From Ruminiclostridium sp. (GTDB lineage Bacteria; Bacillota; Clostridia; Oscillospirales; Oscillospiraceae): DNA of 64,000 nt. Below, piece by piece: positions 7,104 to 42,429 of this stretch (position 1 is its first letter; each line of letters begins with the position of its first letter). Below the pieces are notes generated by a model. That model made no database searches. It was not told where the DNA came from and saw only the letters and a program-made list of their open reading frames with translations. The stretch covers positions 2,257 to 66,256 of the forward strand of contig JAAWAE010000103.1 of NCBI GenBank assembly GCA_022792035.1. Direction: 5' to 3'. Both the position numbers and the translations under genes were made by a program.

Positions 7104-8324
7104 TCAAGCCACCTGGAAGAGCAAAAATTTCAAGTATTCCGTCTCCGGCACCCCCCACAAAATGGGGTGGTCCGGGGCCTGCCGGCGCTCCTCGATCTGC
7201 CGCAGGCGCACCCCGGCGTCGGCGGCGGCCTCCCGGAGCATCTGCAGAAACAGCCCCGCCGTCATGAAGTGGGAGCAGGAGCAGGTGGCCAGATACCCGC
7301 CCCGGGGCAGGAGCTTCATGGCCCGGTAATTGATCTGCTTATAGCCCCGGTAGGCGTTCTTCACCGTGGAACTGCTCTTGGTGAAGGCGGGCGGGTCCAG
7401 GATGATGTAGTCATAGGGGTGCCCGCCCTTCTGGGCCAGGTCCGTGAGGAGCTGAAAAACGTCCGCCTGCCGGGTCTCCAGGGGGAGGCCGTTCAAGGCG
7501 GCGTTGCGCTGGGCCTGGGTCAACGCCTCTTGGGAGATGTCCACGGCGGTTACGGCTTGCGCCCCCGCCATGGCGCAGTTCAGGGCGAAGGCGCCGGTGT
7601 GGGTGAAGCAGTCCAGCACCCGACGACCTTGGGCCAGGCGGGCGGCGGCTTTCCGGTTGTACTTCTGGTCCAGGAAAAACCCGGTTTTCTGCCCGTGGAT
7701 GTAGTCCACGTCATAGAGCACCCCGTTTTCCCGGATGGTCACATGACCGTCCAAGTCTGCCGCCAGCCCCGGCAGGGGATAGAACCCGGTCACCGTCTCC
7801 ATCCCCTCCTTGGCCCGGAGGGGGGACTCGCTGCGCTCGTAGATCGCGGCCACGGTAACGCCATACCCGGCCAGCAGGTCCACCAAGTGGCGGTAAATCT
7901 GCTCCCGCCGCTGCTCCATGCCCAGGGACAGCACCTCTGTGACAAGGATGTTCTCAAAAAGGTCCACGGTGAGGCCGGGGAAGTGGTCGGCCTCGCCGAA
8001 GATCAGACGGCAGCAGGAAAAATCCTGGCCCATGACGGTCTTTCGATAGTCCAGGGCGTGCTGGACCCGCCGCCGCCAGAAGGCGTCATCAAACCGGTCG
8101 TTGGTGTTCCGGGATAGGATGCGCACGCGGATCTTAGAGTGGTCGTTGATCAAGCCGGTGCCCAGCCAGCGCCCTTTTTTCGACAGGACATCCACCAAAT
8201 CCCCGTCCTGGCAGGGCTGTTCCGGCCCGGTGGTCTCCGCGCCGTAGACCCAGGGGTGGCCGGCACGCAGGGCGCGGGCCGCTTTCTCGTTGACCGTTAT
8301 CGTAGGGTAGGGACGTAGGGCCAT
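7104..8324 (-). CDS. RlmI-like SAM-dependent rRNA methyltransferase (PUA domain)
   Basis: GHPWVY, GQKTGFFLDQK, IILDPPAF, TCSCS, PETEYLK; start 8324 after AAGGAGG. Confidence 0.88.
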   Translation of the reverse strand: MALRPYPTITVNEKAARALRAGHPWVYGAETTGPEQPCQDGDLVDVLSKKGRWLGTGLINDHSKIRVRILSRNTNDRFDDAFWRRRVQHALDYRKTVMGQDFSCCRLIFGEADHFPGLTVDLFENILVTEVLSLGMEQRREQIYRHLVDLLAGYGVTVAAIYERSESPLRAKEGMETVTGFYPLPGLAADLDGHVTIRENGVLYDVDYIHGQKTGFFLDQKYNRKAAARLAQGRRVLDCFTHTGAFALNCAMAGAQAVTAVDISQEALTQAQRNAALNGLPLETRQADVFQLLTDLAQKGGHPYDYIILDPPAFTKSSSTVKNAYRGYKQINYRAMKLLPRGGYLATCSCSHFMTAGLFLQMLREAAADAGVRLRQIEERRQAPDHPILWGVPETEYLKFLLFQVA

Positions 8325-8349
8325 AGGGGCCTCCTTTTTTTGTAGATTT

Positions 8350-9210
8350 TTATAGGATCGTATGTTCCAAAACGCCGATGCCTTCGATCTCACAGCGGAC
8401 GGTATCGCCTGCTTTCAGGAACTTCGGCGGAGTAAAGCCCATCCCCACCCCGGCGGGGGTCCCTGTGGCGATGATGGTCCCCGCCAGCAGGGTCATCCCT
8501 TGGGAGAGCTCATGGATGATGTGGGGGATCGAGAAAATCAGCTGGTCCGTCACGGCATCCTGCCGCGCTTCCCCGTTGACCCAAGTCCGGATGGGCAGGG
8601 CGGGGGGTTGCGCGAAGGCGTCCTTCGTCACCAGGCAGGGACCCATGGGGGCGAAGCCGTCTAAACCCTTGCCGAAGGTCCACTGCTTGTGGCCGGTCTG
8701 TAAGTTTCGGGCGGAGATGTCATTGACGATGGTATAGCCGAAGACGTAGTCGAAGGCGTCCGCCTCGGCGACGTTTTTTGCGTCCCGGCCCAGTACCACC
8801 GCCAGCTCGGTCTCATAGTCCAGGCTGTCTACCAGGTCAAAGTGGCCGGGGATGGAGGCCCCGGGGCCGGGGCAATGGCTGGCCCGCTTGGAGAAGTACA
8901 CGGCCTTCCCCTTCTGGCGGGTGAAGGCTTCGGCGTCGAAGTCCTCGGCCTCGCTCTTGTGGGCCTGGTAGTTCATCCCTAAACAAATGATATCCTGCCG
9001 GGGCTGGGGGATGGGGGCCAGGACCTCCACGGCGCCCAGGGTCAGGGTCCCCAGGCTCTGGGCGGCTCGCTCCAGCACGGCGTCCCGGCTCTCCGGCTCA
9101 TCCATGAGGAGGTGGTTCATGCTCTGATAGGGCAGGGGGACCAGGGTCCCTCCCTGGGTTTCCAGGCAGACCAGGGTCCTGCCCTGGTGTACGACGGTAT
9201 AGAGCTTCAT
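8350..9210 (-). CDS. Fumarylacetoacetate hydrolase family protein
   Basis: IICLGMNY, LDYETELAVV, GYTIVNDISAR, ATGTPAGVG. Confidence 0.9.
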   Translation of the reverse strand: MKLYTVVHQGRTLVCLETQGGTLVPLPYQSMNHLLMDEPESRDAVLERAAQSLGTLTLGAVEVLAPIPQPRQDIICLGMNYQAHKSEAEDFDAEAFTRQKGKAVYFSKRASHCPGPGASIPGHFDLVDSLDYETELAVVLGRDAKNVAEADAFDYVFGYTIVNDISARNLQTGHKQWTFGKGLDGFAPMGPCLVTKDAFAQPPALPIRTWVNGEARQDAVTDQLIFSIPHIIHELSQGMTLLAGTIIATGTPAGVGMGFTPPKFLKAGDTVRCEIEGIGVLEHTIL

Positions 9211-31243: not shown

Positions 31244-32392
31244 ATGGAGAAGGAAACCACCCTCCAGGGCCGTTTCCTGCAGGCGGGGGCGCTGATGCTC
31301 CTGCTGAGTTTGGTAATCGGCCTGGTGCTGGGGTTTGTGATGCTGATGCTCTTCACTGCAAATGATCCCAGCGGGAAGGAATTCCTGTTAAGTCTGGTCT
31401 CTCTGTTCAAGGGACAGCTGGGAGGACCCGGGGGGATGCTGCCCTATGTGATCTTAGGGCTGGTGCTGGTGTGTCTGGCGGTGGCGGTGGTGTGCGTGGT
31501 GATCACGTCCCACCTGGCCGGGCGCATTTCCCGGAGCTTGAAACTGCTGCGGCGGACGGTGGATGCCCTGCGGGAGGGAGACCTGTCCGTGGAGGTGCTC
31601 ACCAGCCCCGAGCGGGAGGTGGATGAGTTATGCCAGTCCCTGGAGAGCGTGCGCCAGCAGCTTCGCGCCGCGGCCCGGCGGCAGGAGCGGATGGACCAGG
31701 AGCGGGGCCTGCTGATGGCCAACCTCTCCCACGATCTGCGCACCCCCATCACCGTCATCAAAGGCTATGTGGAGGGCATCCGGGACGGCATCGCCGCCAC
31801 GGAGGAGAAGCGGCGGCACTATCTCTCCACCATCTACAACAAGACCCTGGCCCTGGAGCAGCTGGTTGCGGATATGCGGGATTTTTCCGAGTACGAACTG
31901 GGCCGGATGCAGTACCACTTTGAGCGGGTGGACCTCACCGCCCTGCTGAAGGATCTGGTCCAGGAGTACCGTATGGACGTGGAGGGTTCCGGGATGAGCC
32001 TGGAGGCCCAGCTGCCGGAGCAGGCCCTGTGGACCACGGCGGACCGGCGCAAGCTCAAGCGAGTGCTGGACAATCTGGTGTCCAACGCCGTGAAGTACGG
32101 CCGCGCCGGGGGAGAGGTGTCCCTGACGGGGCAGGCGTACCAGGGGGGGATCATCGTCCAGGTATCGGACAACGGCCGGGGGATCAGCCCCCAGGCCATG
32201 GGCCACATTTTTGACAGCTTCTACCGCGAGGACACCGCCCGCAGCAGTACGGTGCCGGGGAGCGGTCTGGGATTGGCCATTTGTAAGAGCATCATGGAGA
32301 GCCACCATGGAAAGATCTGGCTCACCAGCCGGGAGGGAGAGGGCACCGACGCCTATCTCTACCTGCCCTTGACGAAGGAGGTCGGCGAATGA
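31244..32392 (+). CDS. Sensor histidine kinase (2 TM, HAMP, HisKA, HATPase)
   Basis: SHDLRTP, NLVSNAVKY, DNGRGI, GSGLGLAI; short loop between the TM helices. Confidence 0.92.
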   Translation: MEKETTLQGRFLQAGALMLLLSLVIGLVLGFVMLMLFTANDPSGKEFLLSLVSLFKGQLGGPGGMLPYVILGLVLVCLAVAVVCVVITSHLAGRISRSLKLLRRTVDALREGDLSVEVLTSPEREVDELCQSLESVRQQLRAAARRQERMDQERGLLMANLSHDLRTPITVIKGYVEGIRDGIAATEEKRRHYLSTIYNKTLALEQLVADMRDFSEYELGRMQYHFERVDLTALLKDLVQEYRMDVEGSGMSLEAQLPEQALWTTADRRKLKRVLDNLVSNAVKYGRAGGEVSLTGQAYQGGIIVQVSDNGRGISPQAMGHIFDSFYREDTARSSTVPGSGLGLAICKSIMESHHGKIWLTSREGEGTDAYLYLPLTKEVGE

Positions 32393-33082
32393 ATATTTTG
32401 ATCATTGAAGACGACGAGAGCGTGGGAGAACTGGAACGGGACTATTTGGAGATGAGCGGCGGCTTTCACTGCACGCTGTGCAATGACGGGGTGCTGGGAT
32501 TGCAGCAGGCCCTCAGCGGGGACTGGTCCCTGGTGATCATCGACGTGATGCTGCCGGGGCTCAGCGGCTTTGAGATCTGCCGCCGCCTGCGGGAGGAGCG
32601 GGATGTGCCGGTGATCATCATCTCCGCCCTGGCGGATGACATCGACAAGGTCCGGGGCTTAGGATTGGGCGCGGATGATTATATCACGAAACCCTTTAGT
32701 CCCAGTGAGCTGGTGGCCCGGGTGAAGGGGCACATCCAGCGGTATGAGCGTCTGGTGGGTGGCCGGGAAAAGCCCCGGGCGGAGGTCTTGCAGATCCGGG
32801 GCCTGGAGATCGACCGGGCGGCCCGGCGGGTCTGGGTCAACGGGAAGGAGCAGACCATGACGGGGACCGAGTATGAGCTGCTGCTGTTTCTGGCCGAGCA
32901 CCCGGACACGGTTTTCTCAAAGGACCGGCTGTTCAACAAGGTCTGGGGGACGGATGCCTGCGGGGACCCCTCTACCGTGACCGTGCATATTAAGCATATC
33001 CGGGATAAGATCGAGTCGGACCCGGAGCATATCCAGTATATTGAGACGGTTTGGGGGCGTGGGGTACCGCTTCCGGGGATAA
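32389..33082 (+). CDS. OmpR-family response regulator with an apparent +1 frameshift near the C-terminus
   Basis: IIEDD, DVMLPG, GADDYITKPF, TVTVHI; the conserved ending VWGVGYRF(RG*) is restored by removing one G from the G5 run at 33053-33057. Confidence 0.85.
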
Positions 33083-33084
33083 AG

Positions 33085-33118
33085 AAAAAGGAGACAGGCG
33101 TTGGGCTGTCTCCTTTTT
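33085..33118. terminator. Bidirectional intrinsic terminator
   Basis: AAAAAGGAGACAG-loop-CTGTCTCCTTTTT. Confidence 0.8.
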
Positions 33119-33127
33119 GTATGGGGC

Positions 33128-33156
33128 TTGACATAGGGGTCAGGAATGGATATAAT
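33128..33156 (+). promoter_or_regulatory. sigmaA-type promoter of a putative antitoxin sRNA
   Basis: TTGACA-17 bp-TATAAT with no plausible downstream + strand gene. Confidence 0.85.
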
Positions 33157-33161
33157 AAAAA

Positions 33162-33255
33162 CAGAAGGGTTGCCGGTCCGCGGCTTAGCCCTTTAAGTGA
33201 AAAGTTTCAAGAATTAAAGAAACCGTCACCGTGCAGGGTGGCGGTTTCTGCTTAT
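33162..33255 (+). ncRNA. Putative antisense antitoxin sRNA (about 90 nt)
   Basis: Consensus promoter; terminator AGAAACCGTCACC-GTGCAG-GGTGGCGGTTTCT (33218-33249); overlaps the 3' end of the small minus-strand ORF. Confidence 0.65.
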
Positions 33256-33306
33256 CCGTATACTCACGGTAAATCCACAAATGTGGAACGTGATGGATAT
33301 TGGCAT
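33226..33306 (-). CDS. Putative type I toxin peptide MPISITFHICGFTVSIRISRNRHPAR (26 aa)
   Basis: Strong SD GGAGGTG held in the hairpin CCTCC-GAGA-GGAGG; own promoter; hydrophobic N-terminus and cationic tail. Confidence 0.7.
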   Translation of the reverse strand: MPISITFHICGFTVSIRISRNRHPAR

Positions 33307-33394
33307 ACGCCTCACCTCCTCTCGGAGGATGTAGCTAAGCCGCCTACCGTAGTGGCAATACCCTTCTGACCAGTCCTTGCGAACCGGCAAAATC

Positions 33395-33423
33395 AGGATA
33401 CCATAGCTTGCGGAGTTTGTCAA
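33395..33423 (-). promoter_or_regulatory. sigmaA-type promoter of the putative toxin mRNA
   Basis: TTGACA-17 bp-TATCCT with extended TG on the minus strand. Confidence 0.75.
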
Positions 33424-33448
33424 TTCCTGCGGATATGTCTGATTGGAT

Positions 33449-35014
33449 TTACTGCCCAAACCGGGAGAACACGAACTGCCCCGACTGCGTCAGAGCCTCC
33501 TGAGACCAAACCCCGTTGGGCGAGGTCCCGGGTTTCAGGGCCGCAGAGGTCTCCCCCTTATCGCACAGCGACCAGTTGCACCAGCTGATCCCCCGCTGCG
33601 CCAGAAAATCTAACCACTGGGCGGACTCCGCCAGGAACACGCCGCCGCTGCCGTCCGCCCGACTGGTGCCCCACTCGGAGACGAACACGGGCAGGCCTTT
33701 GGCTCGAACGGCGTCGATCCGGTCCCGCAGTTCCTGGCCGTGGGTCCCGGCGTAAAAATGCAGGGTGTACATCAAATTCTCCCCGGCCACCGGGTCCGCC
33801 GCCGCCTGATGGATGTCCTGGCTCCAGGTGGGGCTGCCGATGAGGATCACCGCCTTGGGGGCCTGGGCCCGGATGGCCTGGACCACTTTTTCCGCATAGG
33901 GTTTTACGTTCCCGCTCCAGCTGATGTTCCCGTTGGGCTCGTTGCAGATCTCATAGAGCACGGCGGGGGAATCCTTGTACCGCTTTGCCATTTCGGTGAA
34001 AAAGGCCACCGCCTCTTCGGTATGGGCGCTGGGGTCCCCGTCGGAGAGGATGTGCCAGTCCAGGATCACATACAGGTCCTGGGCGATGGCGGCATCTGCC
34101 GCGGCGATCAGTGTTTGCTTCATGGCCTCCGGCTGGGAGAGATACCCGCCCTCTCCGGTATACATGGCCAGACGGAACACGTTGGCCCCATGCTGGGCGG
34201 TGTTCCGGATGCTCTGGGCGTTGGCGAAGGAGCCGTACCATTGCAGGCCGTGGGTGCTCATCCCCCGCAGGACCACCGGCTCCCCGGCCTGATTGCACAG
34301 CTGGGTGCCCTTCACCTGCAGGGCACCGTTCTCTGTCACGCCGCCCTGGACGGTGACGACAGGGGACGGCGGCGTTTCCGGCGTGGTTCCCGGGTCCGGC
34401 GCGGGGGCAGTGCTCCCTCCGGCGGCCTGCTTCGCCCGCTGGATTAAGATACAGGCTTCCGCCCGGCTCAGGCCGCTGTGGGGACGGAAGGTGCCGCTGC
34501 TGTCCCCTTTGACCACCCCGGCGGCGTAGGCAGCCAGGACGGCTTCATAATACCGCCCGTCCAGCTGGGAGAAGTCCGAGATCTTTGCGCGCTCTGTGTT
34601 GTAATCTCCCCGGCGCTCCGGCAGGAGGGCCCGCATCAGCACCTTCACCGCCAGCTGCCGGGGGATGGGCTGATCGAATTTCTCCCCGGTGGGGGGCAGC
34701 TCATCCCAGTCATACCAACCCTTCTCCAGGGCGGTTTGCAGGTACCCTGCGGCCCAGTGGGCCGTCTGTCCCTGGCTTGGCGCCGCGCCGGCGGTGCGGG
34801 CGGTGATGGTGACGAATTCCGCCGCCGAGATGGTCTGCCCGGGACGGAAGCTCCCGTCGGGGTAGCCGCTGAGCAGACCCGAGGCGGTCATTTCCTCCAC
34901 GGCGTCGCGGTACCAGCTCCCCGCTTCCACGTCGGGGAAGGCCGCCGCCGCGCCGCTCCACCCCAGCAGCAGGCAGAGCAGGCAGGAAAGCAGGACTTTT
35001 GGGATTGGACGCAT
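33449..35014 (-). CDS. SLH-anchored glycoside hydrolase family 5 (endoglucanase-like)
   Basis: Signal peptide, SLH repeats (GYPDGSFRPG..ISAAEF), Pro/Thr linker, LRGMSTHG, LDWH, ICNEP, HFYAGTH, VSEWG; start 35014 after GGAGG. Confidence 0.9.
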   Translation of the reverse strand: MRPIPKVLLSCLLCLLLGWSGAAAAFPDVEAGSWYRDAVEEMTASGLLSGYPDGSFRPGQTISAAEFVTITARTAGAAPSQGQTAHWAAGYLQTALEKGWYDWDELPPTGEKFDQPIPRQLAVKVLMRALLPERRGDYNTERAKISDFSQLDGRYYEAVLAAYAAGVVKGDSSGTFRPHSGLSRAEACILIQRAKQAAGGSTAPAPDPGTTPETPPSPVVTVQGGVTENGALQVKGTQLCNQAGEPVVLRGMSTHGLQWYGSFANAQSIRNTAQHGANVFRLAMYTGEGGYLSQPEAMKQTLIAAADAAIAQDLYVILDWHILSDGDPSAHTEEAVAFFTEMAKRYKDSPAVLYEICNEPNGNISWSGNVKPYAEKVVQAIRAQAPKAVILIGSPTWSQDIHQAAADPVAGENLMYTLHFYAGTHGQELRDRIDAVRAKGLPVFVSEWGTSRADGSGGVFLAESAQWLDFLAQRGISWCNWSLCDKGETSAALKPGTSPNGVWSQEALTQSGQFVFSRFGQ

Positions 35015-35354: not shown

Positions 35355-35670
35355 ATGTCGCTGGAAGCCATTGAGCAGGTGACCCGAGCGGAAGAAGAGA
35401 GTCTACGCCAAAAGACCCAGGCGGAGGCGGAGGCCAAACAGTTGGTTGCCGACGCCCAGCGGGCAGGCAGGCAGGCCCTGGAACAGCTTCGCAGTCAGGC
35501 CCAGGAGCAGGCCCGGGAGCGGATGCGCCAGGCGGAGCGCCGGGCGGGGGAACGCAGTGCCCAGTCCGCGTCCCAGAGCCGGAAAAACTGTGACAACCTG
35601 CGAAAGGCGGCCCAGGAACGCCTGGATGCCGCCGCGAATGAGATCGTAAAGCGGGTCATGGAGGGAAACT

Positions 35671-35684
<14 letters not shown>
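35355..35684 (+). CDS. V-type ATPase subunit H/G (peripheral stalk)
   Basis: Helical Ala/Glu/Arg-rich 109 aa at the head of the operon. Confidence 0.8.
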
Positions 35685-38093
<2,409 letters not shown>

Positions 38094-38111
38094 CCCTTTG
38101 GGGAGACATAA

Positions 38112-38600
<489 letters not shown>

Positions 38601-38609
38601 GGAGCGGGT

Positions 38610-39197
38610 ATGAACGGGATCGATAAAATCAAGCAGCGCATCGCCCAGGACCTGCAGCAGCAGTCCGACGCGATCCGCCAAAAAGCGGAGGAGGAGGCCC
38701 GGGACATCCTGGCCCGCTACGCCCAGCAGGCCCAAACGGTGGAGGAGGAGATCCTCCGCCGGGGGGAGCGGGACGCCCGGGAGCTGGAGGAACGTCTGGC
38801 AGGCGCTGCCCACATGGAGGATGGCAAGGCCCGTCTGGCGGTGAAGCAGGAGATGCTGGATCAGGCCTTCGCCCTGGCCCTGGATAAACTCTGCGCCTTG
38901 GAGGGCGAGGACAAGCTGACCCTCCTCACCCGCCTGACCCTGGAGGCGGCCCGGACCGGACGGGAGCAGGTGTACCTCTCCCCGGCGGACCGGGAGACTG
39001 TCGGAGAGGCTCTGGTTCAGCGGGCCAACGCCCAGCTGGACCAGGGGGCTTTGACCCTGGCGTCAGAGAGCCGTCCCATCCGAGGGGGCGTGATCCTCAG
39101 CGACGGGGCGGTGGAGAGCAACAACAGCTTTGAGAGCATCCTGCGTCTGGCCCGGGAGGGCATGGCGGGGGACATCGTCAAGCGCCTGTTCCCGTAA
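38610..39197 (+). CDS. ntpE: V-type ATPase subunit E
   Basis: MNGIDKIKQRI, IRGGVIL, NNSFE; operon position. Confidence 0.9.
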   Translation: MNGIDKIKQRIAQDLQQQSDAIRQKAEEEARDILARYAQQAQTVEEEILRRGERDARELEERLAGAAHMEDGKARLAVKQEMLDQAFALALDKLCALEGEDKLTLLTRLTLEAARTGREQVYLSPADRETVGEALVQRANAQLDQGALTLASESRPIRGGVILSDGAVESNNSFESILRLAREGMAGDIVKRLFP

Positions 39198-39212
39198 GGA
39201 GGGGGAGGCACG

Positions 39213-40205
39213 ATGGGAAAAACGAAACCCTTTGACTACCTCTTCCTTGCCACCCGGGTCAAGTCCCTGGAAGGCCGTCTGCTGAACCGGGGACGCATGG
39301 AGCGGATGCTGGAGGCAGGCAGTCACCAGGCGGCCCTGGAGGTTTTGCTGGAGTGCGGCTATCCCGCCGTTCCGGACCCTGTTCTGGGGGCGATTGAGGA
39401 GAGTTTGGCCCAGCAGCGCCGGGAGGTGCTGGAGGACCTTGCGGCCTTCGCCCCGGACCCGGCGGTGGTGGACCTGTTCCGCCTGCGTTTTGATTATCAC
39501 AACTTGAAAGTCCTGCTCAAGGCGCAGGCGCTGGGGACGGACCCGGCGCTGCTGCTCCTGCCGGGAGGCCGGGTCCCGCCGGACCAGCTCCGGGAGTGTC
39601 TGCGCGCGGGAGAGCTGGCCCAGCTTCCCTATCTCTACCGGGAGGCAGTGGAGCAGGGGCGGCAGGCTTTGTCCGCTACGGGGGACCCCCAGCGGATGGA
39701 GTTCGTGCTGGACCGGGCTTATTTTCAGGAGATGTCCGCCCTGGCCCAGGACAGCGGCAGCGAATTTCTCCAGGGCTATGTGCGCCTGAGCATCGACGCG
39801 GCCAACCTCCGCGCCCTGCTGCGCTGTCTGCGCATGGGCAAGGGGGAGGCGTTCCTGCGGGAGGTCCTGGTCCCCGGCGGGGAGGTGGAGCCTTCCCGGC
39901 TGCTTGTCCTGTCCGGCAGCGGACGGCTGGCGGAGGGGTATGCCGGATTCTTGGCCCATGCGGCGCAGGAGGCGGACGACATCCGGCAGGGCGGCGCGAT
40001 GACGCGCTTTGAAAAGGCCTGCGACGATGCGGTCACGGCCTATCTGTCCCAGGCCAAGTACATTGCCTTCGGGGACGCGCCGGTGGCGGCCTATCTGGCG
40101 GCCAAGGAGAACGAGTGGACGGCCATTCGGGTCATCATGAGCGGCCGTCTGGCGGGGCTGTCCAAGGAAACCATCCGGGAAAGGCTGCGTGAGGCGTATG
40201 TCTAA
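39213..40205 (+). CDS. ntpC: V-type ATPase subunit C
   Basis: DYHNLKVLLK, IDAANLR, AKENE, IRERLREAYV. Confidence 0.9.
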   Translation: MGKTKPFDYLFLATRVKSLEGRLLNRGRMERMLEAGSHQAALEVLLECGYPAVPDPVLGAIEESLAQQRREVLEDLAAFAPDPAVVDLFRLRFDYHNLKVLLKAQALGTDPALLLLPGGRVPPDQLRECLRAGELAQLPYLYREAVEQGRQALSATGDPQRMEFVLDRAYFQEMSALAQDSGSEFLQGYVRLSIDAANLRALLRCLRMGKGEAFLREVLVPGGEVEPSRLLVLSGSGRLAEGYAGFLAHAAQEADDIRQGGAMTRFEKACDDAVTAYLSQAKYIAFGDAPVAAYLAAKENEWTAIRVIMSGRLAGLSKETIRERLREAYV

Positions 40206-40512
40206 GTACAAGATCGGCGTCCTGGGGGACCGGGAGAGCGTGCTGGGCTTCAAGGCCCTGGGGCTGGAGGTATTTCCGGTCCAGGAGCCGGGGCAGGCCC
40301 GGGCGCTTTTGCACCGGCTGGCCCGGGAGGAGTATGCCATATTATACATCACCGAGACCTTGGCGGCGCAGCTGCCCGAGGAGATGGCGCGCTATCGCAA
40401 GGCGCTCACGCCGGCGGTGATTTTGATTCCGGGGAAAGAGGGGTCCCGGGGGTTGGGGATGGACAATGTCAGAGCGGCGATCGAACAGGCCGTTGGAGCG
40501 GATATTTTGTGA
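40198..40512 (+). CDS. ntpG: V-type ATPase subunit F
   Basis: KIGVLGDRESVLGFKALG, PAVILIP, AVGADIL (subunit F; NtpG in Enterococcus nomenclature). Confidence 0.9.
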   Translation: MSKYKIGVLGDRESVLGFKALGLEVFPVQEPGQARALLHRLAREEYAILYITETLAAQLPEEMARYRKALTPAVILIPGKEGSRGLGMDNVRAAIEQAVGADIL

Positions 40513-40542
40513 CAGTCTGCTTGGGCTGCGGTCTGAACCTGC

Positions 40543-40623
40543 CAAGGGGCGCTGCCCCTTGACTCCGGCAGGGGCGCTGCCCCTGCACCCCGGCACCTTT
40601 TGAAAAAGGTGCACGAAAACTTT
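40543..40623. repeat. REP-like palindromic element inside the V-ATPase operon
   Basis: Two AGGGGC-GCT-GCCCCT hairpins, then GCACCTTT-TGAA-AAAGGTGC and CGAAAACTTT. Confidence 0.6.
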
Positions 40624-40653
40624 GATCGCCCCATTTTGGGAGGAAGATAGCCT

Positions 40654-42429
40654 ATGGGAAAGATAGTAAAAGTTTCCGGGCCTCTGGTGGTTGCCACAGG
40701 CATGGAAGACGCCAGCATGGCGGACGTGGTCCGCGTAGGAGAACAGCGGCTGATCGGCGAAGTACTCACCATGAATGGGGGGACGGCTTCCATTCAGGTC
40801 TATGAGGAGACTTCCGGCCTGGGGCCGGGGGCAGAGGTGGTGACCACGGGCGCGCCTATGTCTGTGGAGCTGGGGCCGGGAATGATCGAGAATATTTACG
40901 ACGGGATTCAGCGTCCGCTGGGTGAGATCATGCGCAAGGCAGGCGGCAGCAGTCTGCCCCGAGGCGTGGAGGTCCCTTCGCTGGACCGGGAAAAGAAGTG
41001 GGGCTTTGTGGCCACCATCAAGCCCGGGACGGAGGTTTCCGGCGGGGATATCATCGGCACCGTTCAGGAGACGCCGGTGGTTCAGCACAAGATCATGGTG
41101 CCGCCGAAGCTCAAGGGCACCATTCAGGAGATCCATTCCGGGGATTACACGGTTTTGGAGACGGTTGCCACCCTGGTGGATCAGGATGGGAAGCGTCATG
41201 CGCTGACCCTCATGCAGAAGTGGCCGGTCCGGGTGGGACGGCCTTATCAGCATAAGTATCCGCCCAAAACGCCGCTTCTCTCTGGGCAGCGGATCGTGGA
41301 TACCATGTTCCCTGTGGCCAAGGGGGGGACTGCGGCCATTCCTGGCCCCTTTGGCTCCGGGAAGACGGTGATGCAGCACGCCTTGGCGAAATGGGCGGAT
41401 GTGGATATCGTGGTTTACATCGGCTGCGGGGAACGGGGCAATGAGATGACGGACGTGCTCCGGGAGTTCCCGGAGCTGGTGGACCCCCGGACGGGGGAGT
41501 CTCTGATGAAGCGGACGGTCCTCATTGCCAACACCTCAGATATGCCGGTGGCGGCTCGGGAGGCTTCCATTTATACGGGCATCACCATTGCGGAGTATTT
41601 CCGGGATATGGGGATGGACGTGGCGGTCATCGGGGACTCCACTTCCCGTTGGGCGGAGGCCCTGCGGGAGATGTCCGGCCGTTTGGAGGAGATGCCCGGG
41701 GAAGAGGGGTATCCGGCTTATCTGTCGTCCCGGCTGGCGCAGTTCTATGAACGGGCGGGGATGGTGGAGTGCCTGGGCAGCCGGGAGGAGCGGCGAGGCT
41801 CCTTGACGGCGGTGGGCGCGGTGTCCCCGCCGGGCGGCGACTTGTCCGAGCCGGTGAGTCAGGCCACCATGCGCATCGTGAAGGTTTTCTGGGCCTTGGA
41901 TTCCTCTCTGGCTTACCGGCGGCATTTCCCGGCCATCAACTGGCTCAACTCCTATTCCCTGTATCTGGATGGTTTGAAGCCCTGGTATGACGAGAATTTG
42001 GGGCCGCAGTTCATGGAGAAGCGGGACAAGGCCATGTCCATCCTCCAGGAGGAGGCCAGTTTGAACGAGATCGTTCAGCTGGTGGGCAAGGACTCCCTCT
42101 CCCCCGGGGACCAGCTGACCCTGGAGACCGCCAAGATGATCCGGGAGGATTTTCTCCAGCAGAACGGGTTTATGGAAGTGGATTGGTATTCCAGCTATCA
42201 GCGCCAGGACGGCATGATGGGGATGATCCTGGACTATGACCGGCTCTGCCGCGCCGCCATCGAGAAGGGGGCGGAGACGGCGGACCTGTTTGCCCTGCCG
42301 GTGCGTGAGCGGATCGGCCGGGCCAAGAGCGTCCCGGAGGAGGAATATCCCGCCGTATTCCGGGACATCGCCCGGGAGATGGAGGAGCAGATCGACGCGG
42401 CGGCGGCCAAGGGAGGCGAGGACCTATGA
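40654..42429 (+). CDS. ntpA: V-type ATPase subunit A
   Basis: [27 protein letters not shown]. Confidence 0.97.

Follow-up and report, generated by a model that had tools for sequence, protein, structure and literature searches.

The window analysed here is a stretch of 64,000 nucleotides from Ruminiclostridium sp., and it carries at 33128-33423 a compact cassette in which a small peptide ORF faces a convergent, predicted antisense RNA. The cassette has a two-component operon on one side and an SLH/GH5 cellulase gene on the other. A sequence-only reading had described the locus by five features, i.e. a minus-strand TTGACA-17-TATCCT promoter, a leader with a GCAA-capped 5' hairpin and a hairpin sequestering the SD, a 26-aa ORF, two inverted-repeat pairs, and a convergent TTGACA-17-TATAAT promoter giving an ORF-less RNA whose terminator overlaps the last codons of the peptide. 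With both strands read, all five were located where it had placed them (Table 1). One pair of inverted arms (33162-33174 with 33354-33368) contains a 2-nt bulge and the other (33180-33189 with 33334-33343) is perfect.

Table 1. Coordinates of the cassette elements within the window
Feature	Position	Strand	Details
Sigma-A-type promoter of the peptide mRNA	33395..33423	-	TTGACA 33423-33418, 17-nt spacer, TATCCT 33400-33395, extended -10 TG
GCAA-tetraloop 5' hairpin	33369..33388	-	Read from sequence and mRNA fold
5' leader arm, two segments	33334..33368	-	Predicted pairing with mRNA 3' arm; compensatory changes
SD-sequestering hairpin	33307..33333 (core 33328-33315)	-	Anti-SD 33328-33324, SD 33319-33315
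26-aa peptide ORF (P0001)	33226..33306	-	Amphipathic beta-hairpin, residues 2-19 (predicted); basic tail overlaps RNA hairpin
Hairpin common to both RNAs	33218..33249	+	Predicted sRNA terminator, read through by mRNA; overlaps last codons of ORF
sRNA middle, AT-rich, hypervariable	33192..33217	+	Sequence comparison among copies
mRNA 3' arm	33160..33191	-	Local terminator-like hairpin (-10.7 kcal/mol) and U-run; complement of sRNA 5' hairpin
Predicted antisense sRNA, ~93 nt	33163..33255	+	Full complementarity to mRNA 3' region
Sigma-A-type sRNA promoter, perfect	33128..33156	+	TTGACA 33128-33133, 17-nt spacer, TATAAT 33151-33156 (12/12)
Bidirectional terminator	33085..33118	.	Ends upstream response-regulator operon; insulates cassette; outside family core

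The mRNA start is predicted near 33388 on the minus strand, and its leader arm is nearly identical in sequence to the 5' end of the sRNA. No start codon led by an SD was present in the sRNA interior scanned. Among the homologous copies described below, the promoter pattern of the peptide mRNA lies upstream in 92 of 112 and the sRNA promoter pattern in 102 of the 104 that have full flanks; predicted sRNA lengths range from 85 to 99 nt, and the GCAA 5' hairpin is missing or altered in many homologues. A promoter scan over 1.8 kb returned three promoter-like sites, versus 0.9 +/- 1.0 in shuffles.

A 326-aa ORF (32389-33369) spanning the cassette was considered as a rival gene and rejected as read-through from one extra base near 33053. 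Through it the response-regulator ORF (32389-33083, plus strand) continues into the cassette; a contig from an RNA library is without this base, which is likely an assembly error or a strain frameshift. Elsewhere in the window, ORF translations at 35355-42429 were judged to form an operon like that of a V/A-type ATPase, in which two proteolipid-like genes stand in tandem (37614-38093 and 38127-38600).

Distribution and genomic setting of the family

Scanning species genomes for the peptide gave 113 matching stretches, 96 of them confirmed; in viral contigs 27 of 38 matches were confirmed. A set of 137 loci yielded at least 112 distinct cassettes and at least 80 distinct peptides, a lower bound given that the search pattern would miss a shorter, 25-aa beta-type subgroup. 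Peptides of this subgroup, without the first strand residues, were observed at L188, L189, L191 and L194 and in flanks of L031-L137. Among the 80 matches listed, most belong to Oscillospiraceae and Ruminococcaceae-type genera, and four of those listed lie in Bacteroidales-labelled assemblies, where they are probably mis-binned. A class-wide search of 300 other genomes gave no convincing match, the two weak ones containing stops. Near-identical DNA is present in mouse-gut runs. One carrier available in culture is Evtepia gabavorous KLE1738 (locus L074). Presence in the genus is patchy (17 of 40 genomes, 9 of the 23 near-complete ones). As to copy number, which the sequence-only reading had named as a point to check, the 112 distinct copies and up to six matches per genus genome define a multicopy family.

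The source genome (1.9 Mb, 85 % complete) holds three intact copies, one fused 5' half, four antisense halves without a peptide start, and two loci in which related arms surround a helical peptide (one of them read by eye). At C27:22644-23613 of this genome (G000), a membrane-protein ORF separates one intact cassette, a hairpin on its own and a 5' half, and it seems to have inserted into a second cassette copy.

Bacterial copies are neighboured by unrelated, mostly housekeeping genes. Of 151 flanking ORFs listed, 79 were scanned, and these included no conserved transporter, immunity or partner gene. In the five genus mates for which the end of the orthologous cellulase gene was read, no cassette follows it directly, and two of the five carry a copy with different arms ~2 kb beyond that gene. 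The family is unannotated in the single annotated record checked. Locus L030, on the Vescimonas fastidiosa replicon NZ_AP023416.1, has two tandem antisense units, unannotated, 3' of the rpmH-rnpA-yidC-jag operon; six places in that record match.

In 15 of the 27 viral loci the cassette lies downstream of a holin and upstream of an endolysin, and six more adjoin one of these genes. Three different holin families flank the viral copies, and 13 of the 27 loci share one upstream flank and so are dependent. At L111-L135 the cassette is situated inside phage lysis modules, its antisense promoter opposing late transcription.

The two halves of the cassette are not lost symmetrically. Every intact peptide with full flanks (104 of 104) retains an antisense arm that beats all 20 shuffles; retention was judged by shuffle rank, as a fixed threshold of -28 kcal/mol lets too many shuffles through (53 %). 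Halves that keep the antisense part but no SD-led ORF are common, in the source genome, as given above, and at 16 of 113 hits in flanks, and 8 of the 20 family-level hits of the sRNA model presented below are truncated or empty. The sole counter-example is C27:23449, where promoter, leader and codons 1-18 are joined to foreign sequence and the antisense half is missing; it counts against the reading that we favour. Such asymmetry of remnants would be expected for a harmful product, an argument for toxicity that is only indirect.

Coding evidence and predicted fold of the peptide

Coding potential was assessed by dN/dS, taken as pairwise averages over related sequences whose events are dependent. 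For codons 2-20 of 86 distinct 27-aa CDSs it was 0.137, against 1.37 and 3.12 in the shifted frames; restricting the set to the 14 copies that only a DNA search had recovered gave 0.143, and codons not covered by the search pattern gave 0.144 (n = 73). Start-to-hairpin distances vary by multiples of three only (n = 102), and eight columns are invariant in 11 aligned peptides. The frame is thus conserved as the sequence-only reading required, with an ORF under purifying selection (dN/dS ~0.14) and frame-preserving indels. The window peptide has 26 aa, compared with a family norm of 27 aa (96 of 112 copies).

Hydrophobic residues occupy positions 3, 5, 7, 9, 12, 14, 16 and 18, and polar ones positions 4, 6, 8, 13, 15 and 17; in a hairpin with a two-residue turn, this alternation brings all hydrophobic side chains to one face. 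An AlphaFold model of a 34-aa homologue, standing in for the window peptide, has strands at 2-9 and 12-19 (pLDDT 91-92), and the beta moment (2.8) exceeds the helix moment (0.6-0.9), with a best 19-residue hydropathy of 1.0-1.2. The predicted hairpin unit therefore comprises 19 residues in two strands, one face bearing eight hydrophobic residues and the opposite one Thr/His/Arg, in support of the beta-hairpin-like peptide proposed earlier. The proposal that it does not resemble single transmembrane-helix toxins is likewise upheld, both by this model and by the absence of any match to PF16935 (the TxpA model) among 39 peptides. A four-copy complex model of the 34-aa homologue scored 0.02 against a mark of 0.42.

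The Arg-rich tail that had been pointed out is present, but needs qualifying: it is written by the invariant RNA hairpin, which codons 21-27 overlap, its dN/dS is 0.53 versus 0.14 for the core, and 7 of 112 copies stop ahead of it. In part it is a by-product of this RNA hairpin, and for the same reasons we take the beta-hairpin as the functional core.

P0001 had no match in Pfam or NCBIfam, and only weak unnamed hits in PHROGs (best E 0.003). In PDB there was no match by sequence and no fold match at E <= 0.001, arenicins being among the weak, non-significant fold hits. None of eight peptides was retrieved by exact look-up in the protein collection, which a gene-calling length limit may explain. 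No description of the beta-hairpin family was found in the literature searched, an anonymous entry in T1TAdb, Sberro or peptide/small-ORF catalogues being possible; none of three peptide motifs occurs in the Fozo 2010 supplements (all files but one), and the readable supplements of Fremin 2021, i.e. those other than the alignment archives, gave no match.

The closest likeness concerned SpyT/YrzI (PF09501, TIGR02413), hit by 6 of 39 members with a best E of 0.0046, below the cut-off of the family, whose profile spans ~45 aa; hhalign gave a borderline probability of 39 % over 12 columns, in which the N-terminal 12 residues of SpyT align with residues 6-17 here. The best SpyT-like sequence (9.0 bits) scored above all 200 alternation-preserving shuffles, and one of 14,089 decoy windows reached 8 bits. 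The YrzI/SpyT profile had no match in the source genome. Overexpressed SpyT is toxic to B. subtilis, and its antitoxin is a peptide (PMC12067863); its homologues differ from our peptide in having ~30 further residues, with the antitoxin in an operon and no antisense RNA described. Judged from these alignments, homology to SpyT is unlikely, though worth keeping in mind; otherwise, the two would be convergent hairpins.

RNA folding and a shared chassis

No Rfam family was hit by the whole window at the gathering score, nor by 32900-33700 at E <= 5, so that the RNAs match no Rfam family, a comparison on which the claimed novelty depended. Thirteen runs recorded as RNA contain part of the stretch. 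Metatranscriptome contigs from two studies cover 33222-33379, unstranded and with the flanks covered too, and a run of unknown kind breaks at places similar to these RNA contigs. The part specific to the sRNA was uncovered in four of four runs at 93 % identity and covered in two of three RNA runs at 85 %, the strand not being distinguishable.

The folding energy is -100.6 kcal/mol for the predicted mRNA of 229 nt (z -7.5) and -40.8 kcal/mol for the predicted sRNA of 93 nt (z -5.9), none of 200 shuffles being as low in either case. Family-wide folding used the 76 of 112 copies in which SD, hairpin and both promoters could be parsed, and excluded the remaining 36. Leader-tail duplexes reached -50.1 kcal/mol for cognate versus -35.1 kcal/mol for non-cognate partners (n = 76), the own tail ranking best in half of the copies and in the top tenth in 89 %, and double-sided changes were found in 15 of 32 consensus-fold pairs. 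The 5' and 3' arms therefore co-vary copy by copy, as anticipated for arms that pair.

The hairpin common to both RNAs always contains a G-U pair in the sRNA and a C-A mismatch in the mRNA, and its sRNA form is the stronger one in 76 of 76 copies (-21.1 versus -15.1 kcal/mol), a bias that fits an sRNA terminator through which the mRNA reads. On the mRNA strand, the 3' arm is associated with a U-run (>=5 T in 10) in 55 of 76 copies. In this region, L076 and L096 carry on the mRNA strand an SD-like AGAAAGGAGG stretch not seen in other copies.

The SD is predicted to be paired in every state tested, which counts against the favoured reading; on release of the leader arm, an extension of the SD hairpin forms in the predicted fold. 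In hok/Sok and aapA/IsoA the antitoxin acts on the 5' region, and the mRNA becomes active once its 3' end is trimmed. The locus resembles these systems, as had been suggested, by its 5'-3' fold-back and sequestered SD, but here the antisense covers the 3' end and the analogy fails at its key step. Activation by 3' trimming was rejected: the SD is not freed, the opening cost of the RBS goes from 14.9 to 16.4 kcal/mol, and among the 76 copies the trimmed mRNA has an RBS more than 1 kcal/mol harder to open in 59 % and easier in 13 %, i.e. removal of the 3' end is predicted to tighten it slightly.

Like bsrG/SR4 of the B. subtilis phage SPbeta, in which SR4 obscures the bsrG RBS (PMC5848175), the cassette has a 3'-overlapping antitoxin, and in 63 of 76 copies a blocked 3' end is predicted to give a longer SD hairpin (9.0 pairs instead of 6.3). 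The opening cost of the RBS on co-folding, however, is flat across the family (15.2 versus 15.8 kcal/mol, p = 0.36), with a rise from 14.9 to 18.4 kcal/mol in the window copy. An SR4-like additional lock of the RBS by antisense binding would thus be only half supported by the models. BsrG further differs in being a 38-aa helix of Bacillus, the present family being found in Clostridia. In Fst/par (RNAI/RNAII), direct repeats give the antitoxin a 5' end that complements the toxin leader; here the repeats are inverted, and the sRNA 5' end resembles the leader instead of complementing it.

The hypervariable sRNA middle (33192-33217) is likely a copy-specific recognition region. Over 33193-33215 of it, a contig from run X1 differs from the window by eight substitutions and three deletions in 23 nt, with one base different over 33060-33192 in the same contig. 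This divergence suggests diversifying selection or gene conversion of a putative specificity region, unless the contig is chimeric.

Within the order, Hol_Tox (PF16935) loci share the layout of the cassette, and their arms are related to those found here. An sRNA model built from beta-type copies alone matched six of eight Hol_Tox loci (two overlap; rough E <0.005). At the order level outside the source genome, helical ORFs lie at 8 of its 15 hits, and its 20 family-level hits consist of 7 intact beta-type, 3 truncated beta-type and 5 helical loci and 5 antisense halves only. Identity in the 3' arm between a TxpA-type and a beta-type locus is 27 of 28 nt. A second helical group, of 24-31 aa and ending in KAC, KAR or similar, is borne by the same chassis (G000 C72:14729-15018 and C13:~8150-8406; L006:1963-2034; L168; L199); the one member scanned had no Pfam match, and the group is possibly another undescribed type I toxin family. 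As far as sequence comparison goes, the chassis carries at least three payloads, i.e. TxpA-type helices, this second helical group and the beta-hairpin.

Fozo 2010 placed a Clostridial peptide of Hol_Tox type in the TxpA alignment and reported for EF3263 a ~110-nt 3'-overlapping RNA together with toxicity (PMC2887945). The likeness to TxpA-family loci (B. subtilis txpA/RatA, E. faecalis EF3263, Clostridial Hol_Tox; PMC2887945, PMC3531473) includes convergent genes, an antisense of ~100 nt over the mRNA 3' end, a small ORF, multiple copies and a prophage location, and in this order arms and hairpin are homologous. The difference lies in the payload, a transmembrane helix with a lysine tail in TxpA and a predicted beta-hairpin here. 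[quoted passage not shown] According to a review (PMC8309996), an alpha-helical transmembrane domain is common to all type I toxins associated with the membrane, a point against the reading that we favour. The earlier claim of an undescribed type I TA family consequently stands in part: the peptide is new, but the RNA layout is known and carries TxpA-family helices in the same bacteria. The chassis thus appears to be the known part of the cassette and the payload peptide its new part.

Proposed function, competing explanations and meaning

The convergent promoters, the ORF under purifying selection, the co-varying arms and the occurrence of the same arms around TxpA-family peptides lead us to consider the locus, with good though not full confidence, as a type I TA cassette of TxpA/BsrG layout with a swapped-in beta-hairpin toxin. 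In the mechanism that we propose, a ~230-nt mRNA would read through the hairpin at 33218-33249 and end at the 3' arm. It would fold back on its leader, with the SD held in a short hairpin, resulting in low translation. The ~93-nt RNA, made from the stronger promoter, would pair with the last 93 nt of the mRNA, and cutting of the duplex by RNase III would be the main control, by analogy with txpA/RatA, for which decay of the duplex via RNase III was described (Durand 2012, PMC3531473), and with bsrG/SR4. Once antisense supply stops (prophage or locus loss, stress), translation of the mRNA would proceed, and its peptide product would inhibit the producing cell. The action ranked most likely, with about an even chance, is insertion of the hydrophobic face into the membrane as a beta-sheet oligomer; addition of a beta-strand to an essential protein ranks next and is possible, if somewhat doubtful.

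A second explanation, which we regard as improbable, is that a TA chassis was co-opted for an antisense-controlled, non-lethal peptide, be it regulatory, growth-slowing or an exported antimicrobial. Cationic amphipathic beta-hairpins are a common antimicrobial shape, the arenicins appear among the weak fold hits, and the eight invariant columns indicate strong conservation across genera. YhzE-2 moreover offers a precedent, as a toxin-like peptide with an antisense RNA that is nevertheless non-toxic (Fozo 2010, PMC2887945), so that layout alone does not prove killing. Against such a role, the peptide has no signal peptide, the flanking ORFs scanned hold no conserved transporter, immunity or partner gene, presence is patchy, and antisense halves outlasting the ORF fit selection for removing a harmful product.

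The viral loci could instead reflect a device of phage lysis control, in which leaky transcription of lysis genes in the lysogen is damped by the antisense promoter and the hairpins, the peptide is a lysis accessory and the chromosomal copies are relics. The position between holin and endolysin, next to three holin families, agrees with it, but nearly half of the viral loci are dependent through their common flank, most bacterial copies lie between housekeeping genes with frames intact under selection, and type I TA systems are known as prophage-maintenance cargo, helping to maintain prophages in C. difficile (PMC7699646). We thus hold this explanation, as a substitute for a TA function, to be highly unlikely; the two roles are compatible, not exclusive.

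Least credible of all is a selfish MITE-like short repeat with inverted ends, its arms being DNA recognition sites and its ORF incidental: it would account for multiple, patchy and tandem copies and for the absence after the orthologous cellulase gene in five genus mates, but no exact empty site was found, dN/dS and indels preserve the frame, the arms are internal to the two promoters and pair with bulges and G-U as RNA would, and the hairpin wobble favours one strand in all 76 copies.

We see a fair, roughly even prospect that a beta-hairpin is here, for the first time, the basis of a type I toxin family, which would act by forming a beta-sheet pore or jamming an essential protein. Its chassis, with at least three unrelated payloads and in phages placed between holin and endolysin genes, would be modular, and SpyT may have the same hairpin. 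The carriers are gut Oscillospiraceae and their phages. The peptide, if toxic, would be with its 20-27 residues a minimal beta-type inhibitor that is genetically encoded and acts in a new way, and the family may offer a handle on the mechanism of SpyT. It would further mean that a type I TA RNA chassis can exchange unrelated toxins, and such swapping suggests that toxins may be discovered by their RNA scaffold rather than by peptide shape.
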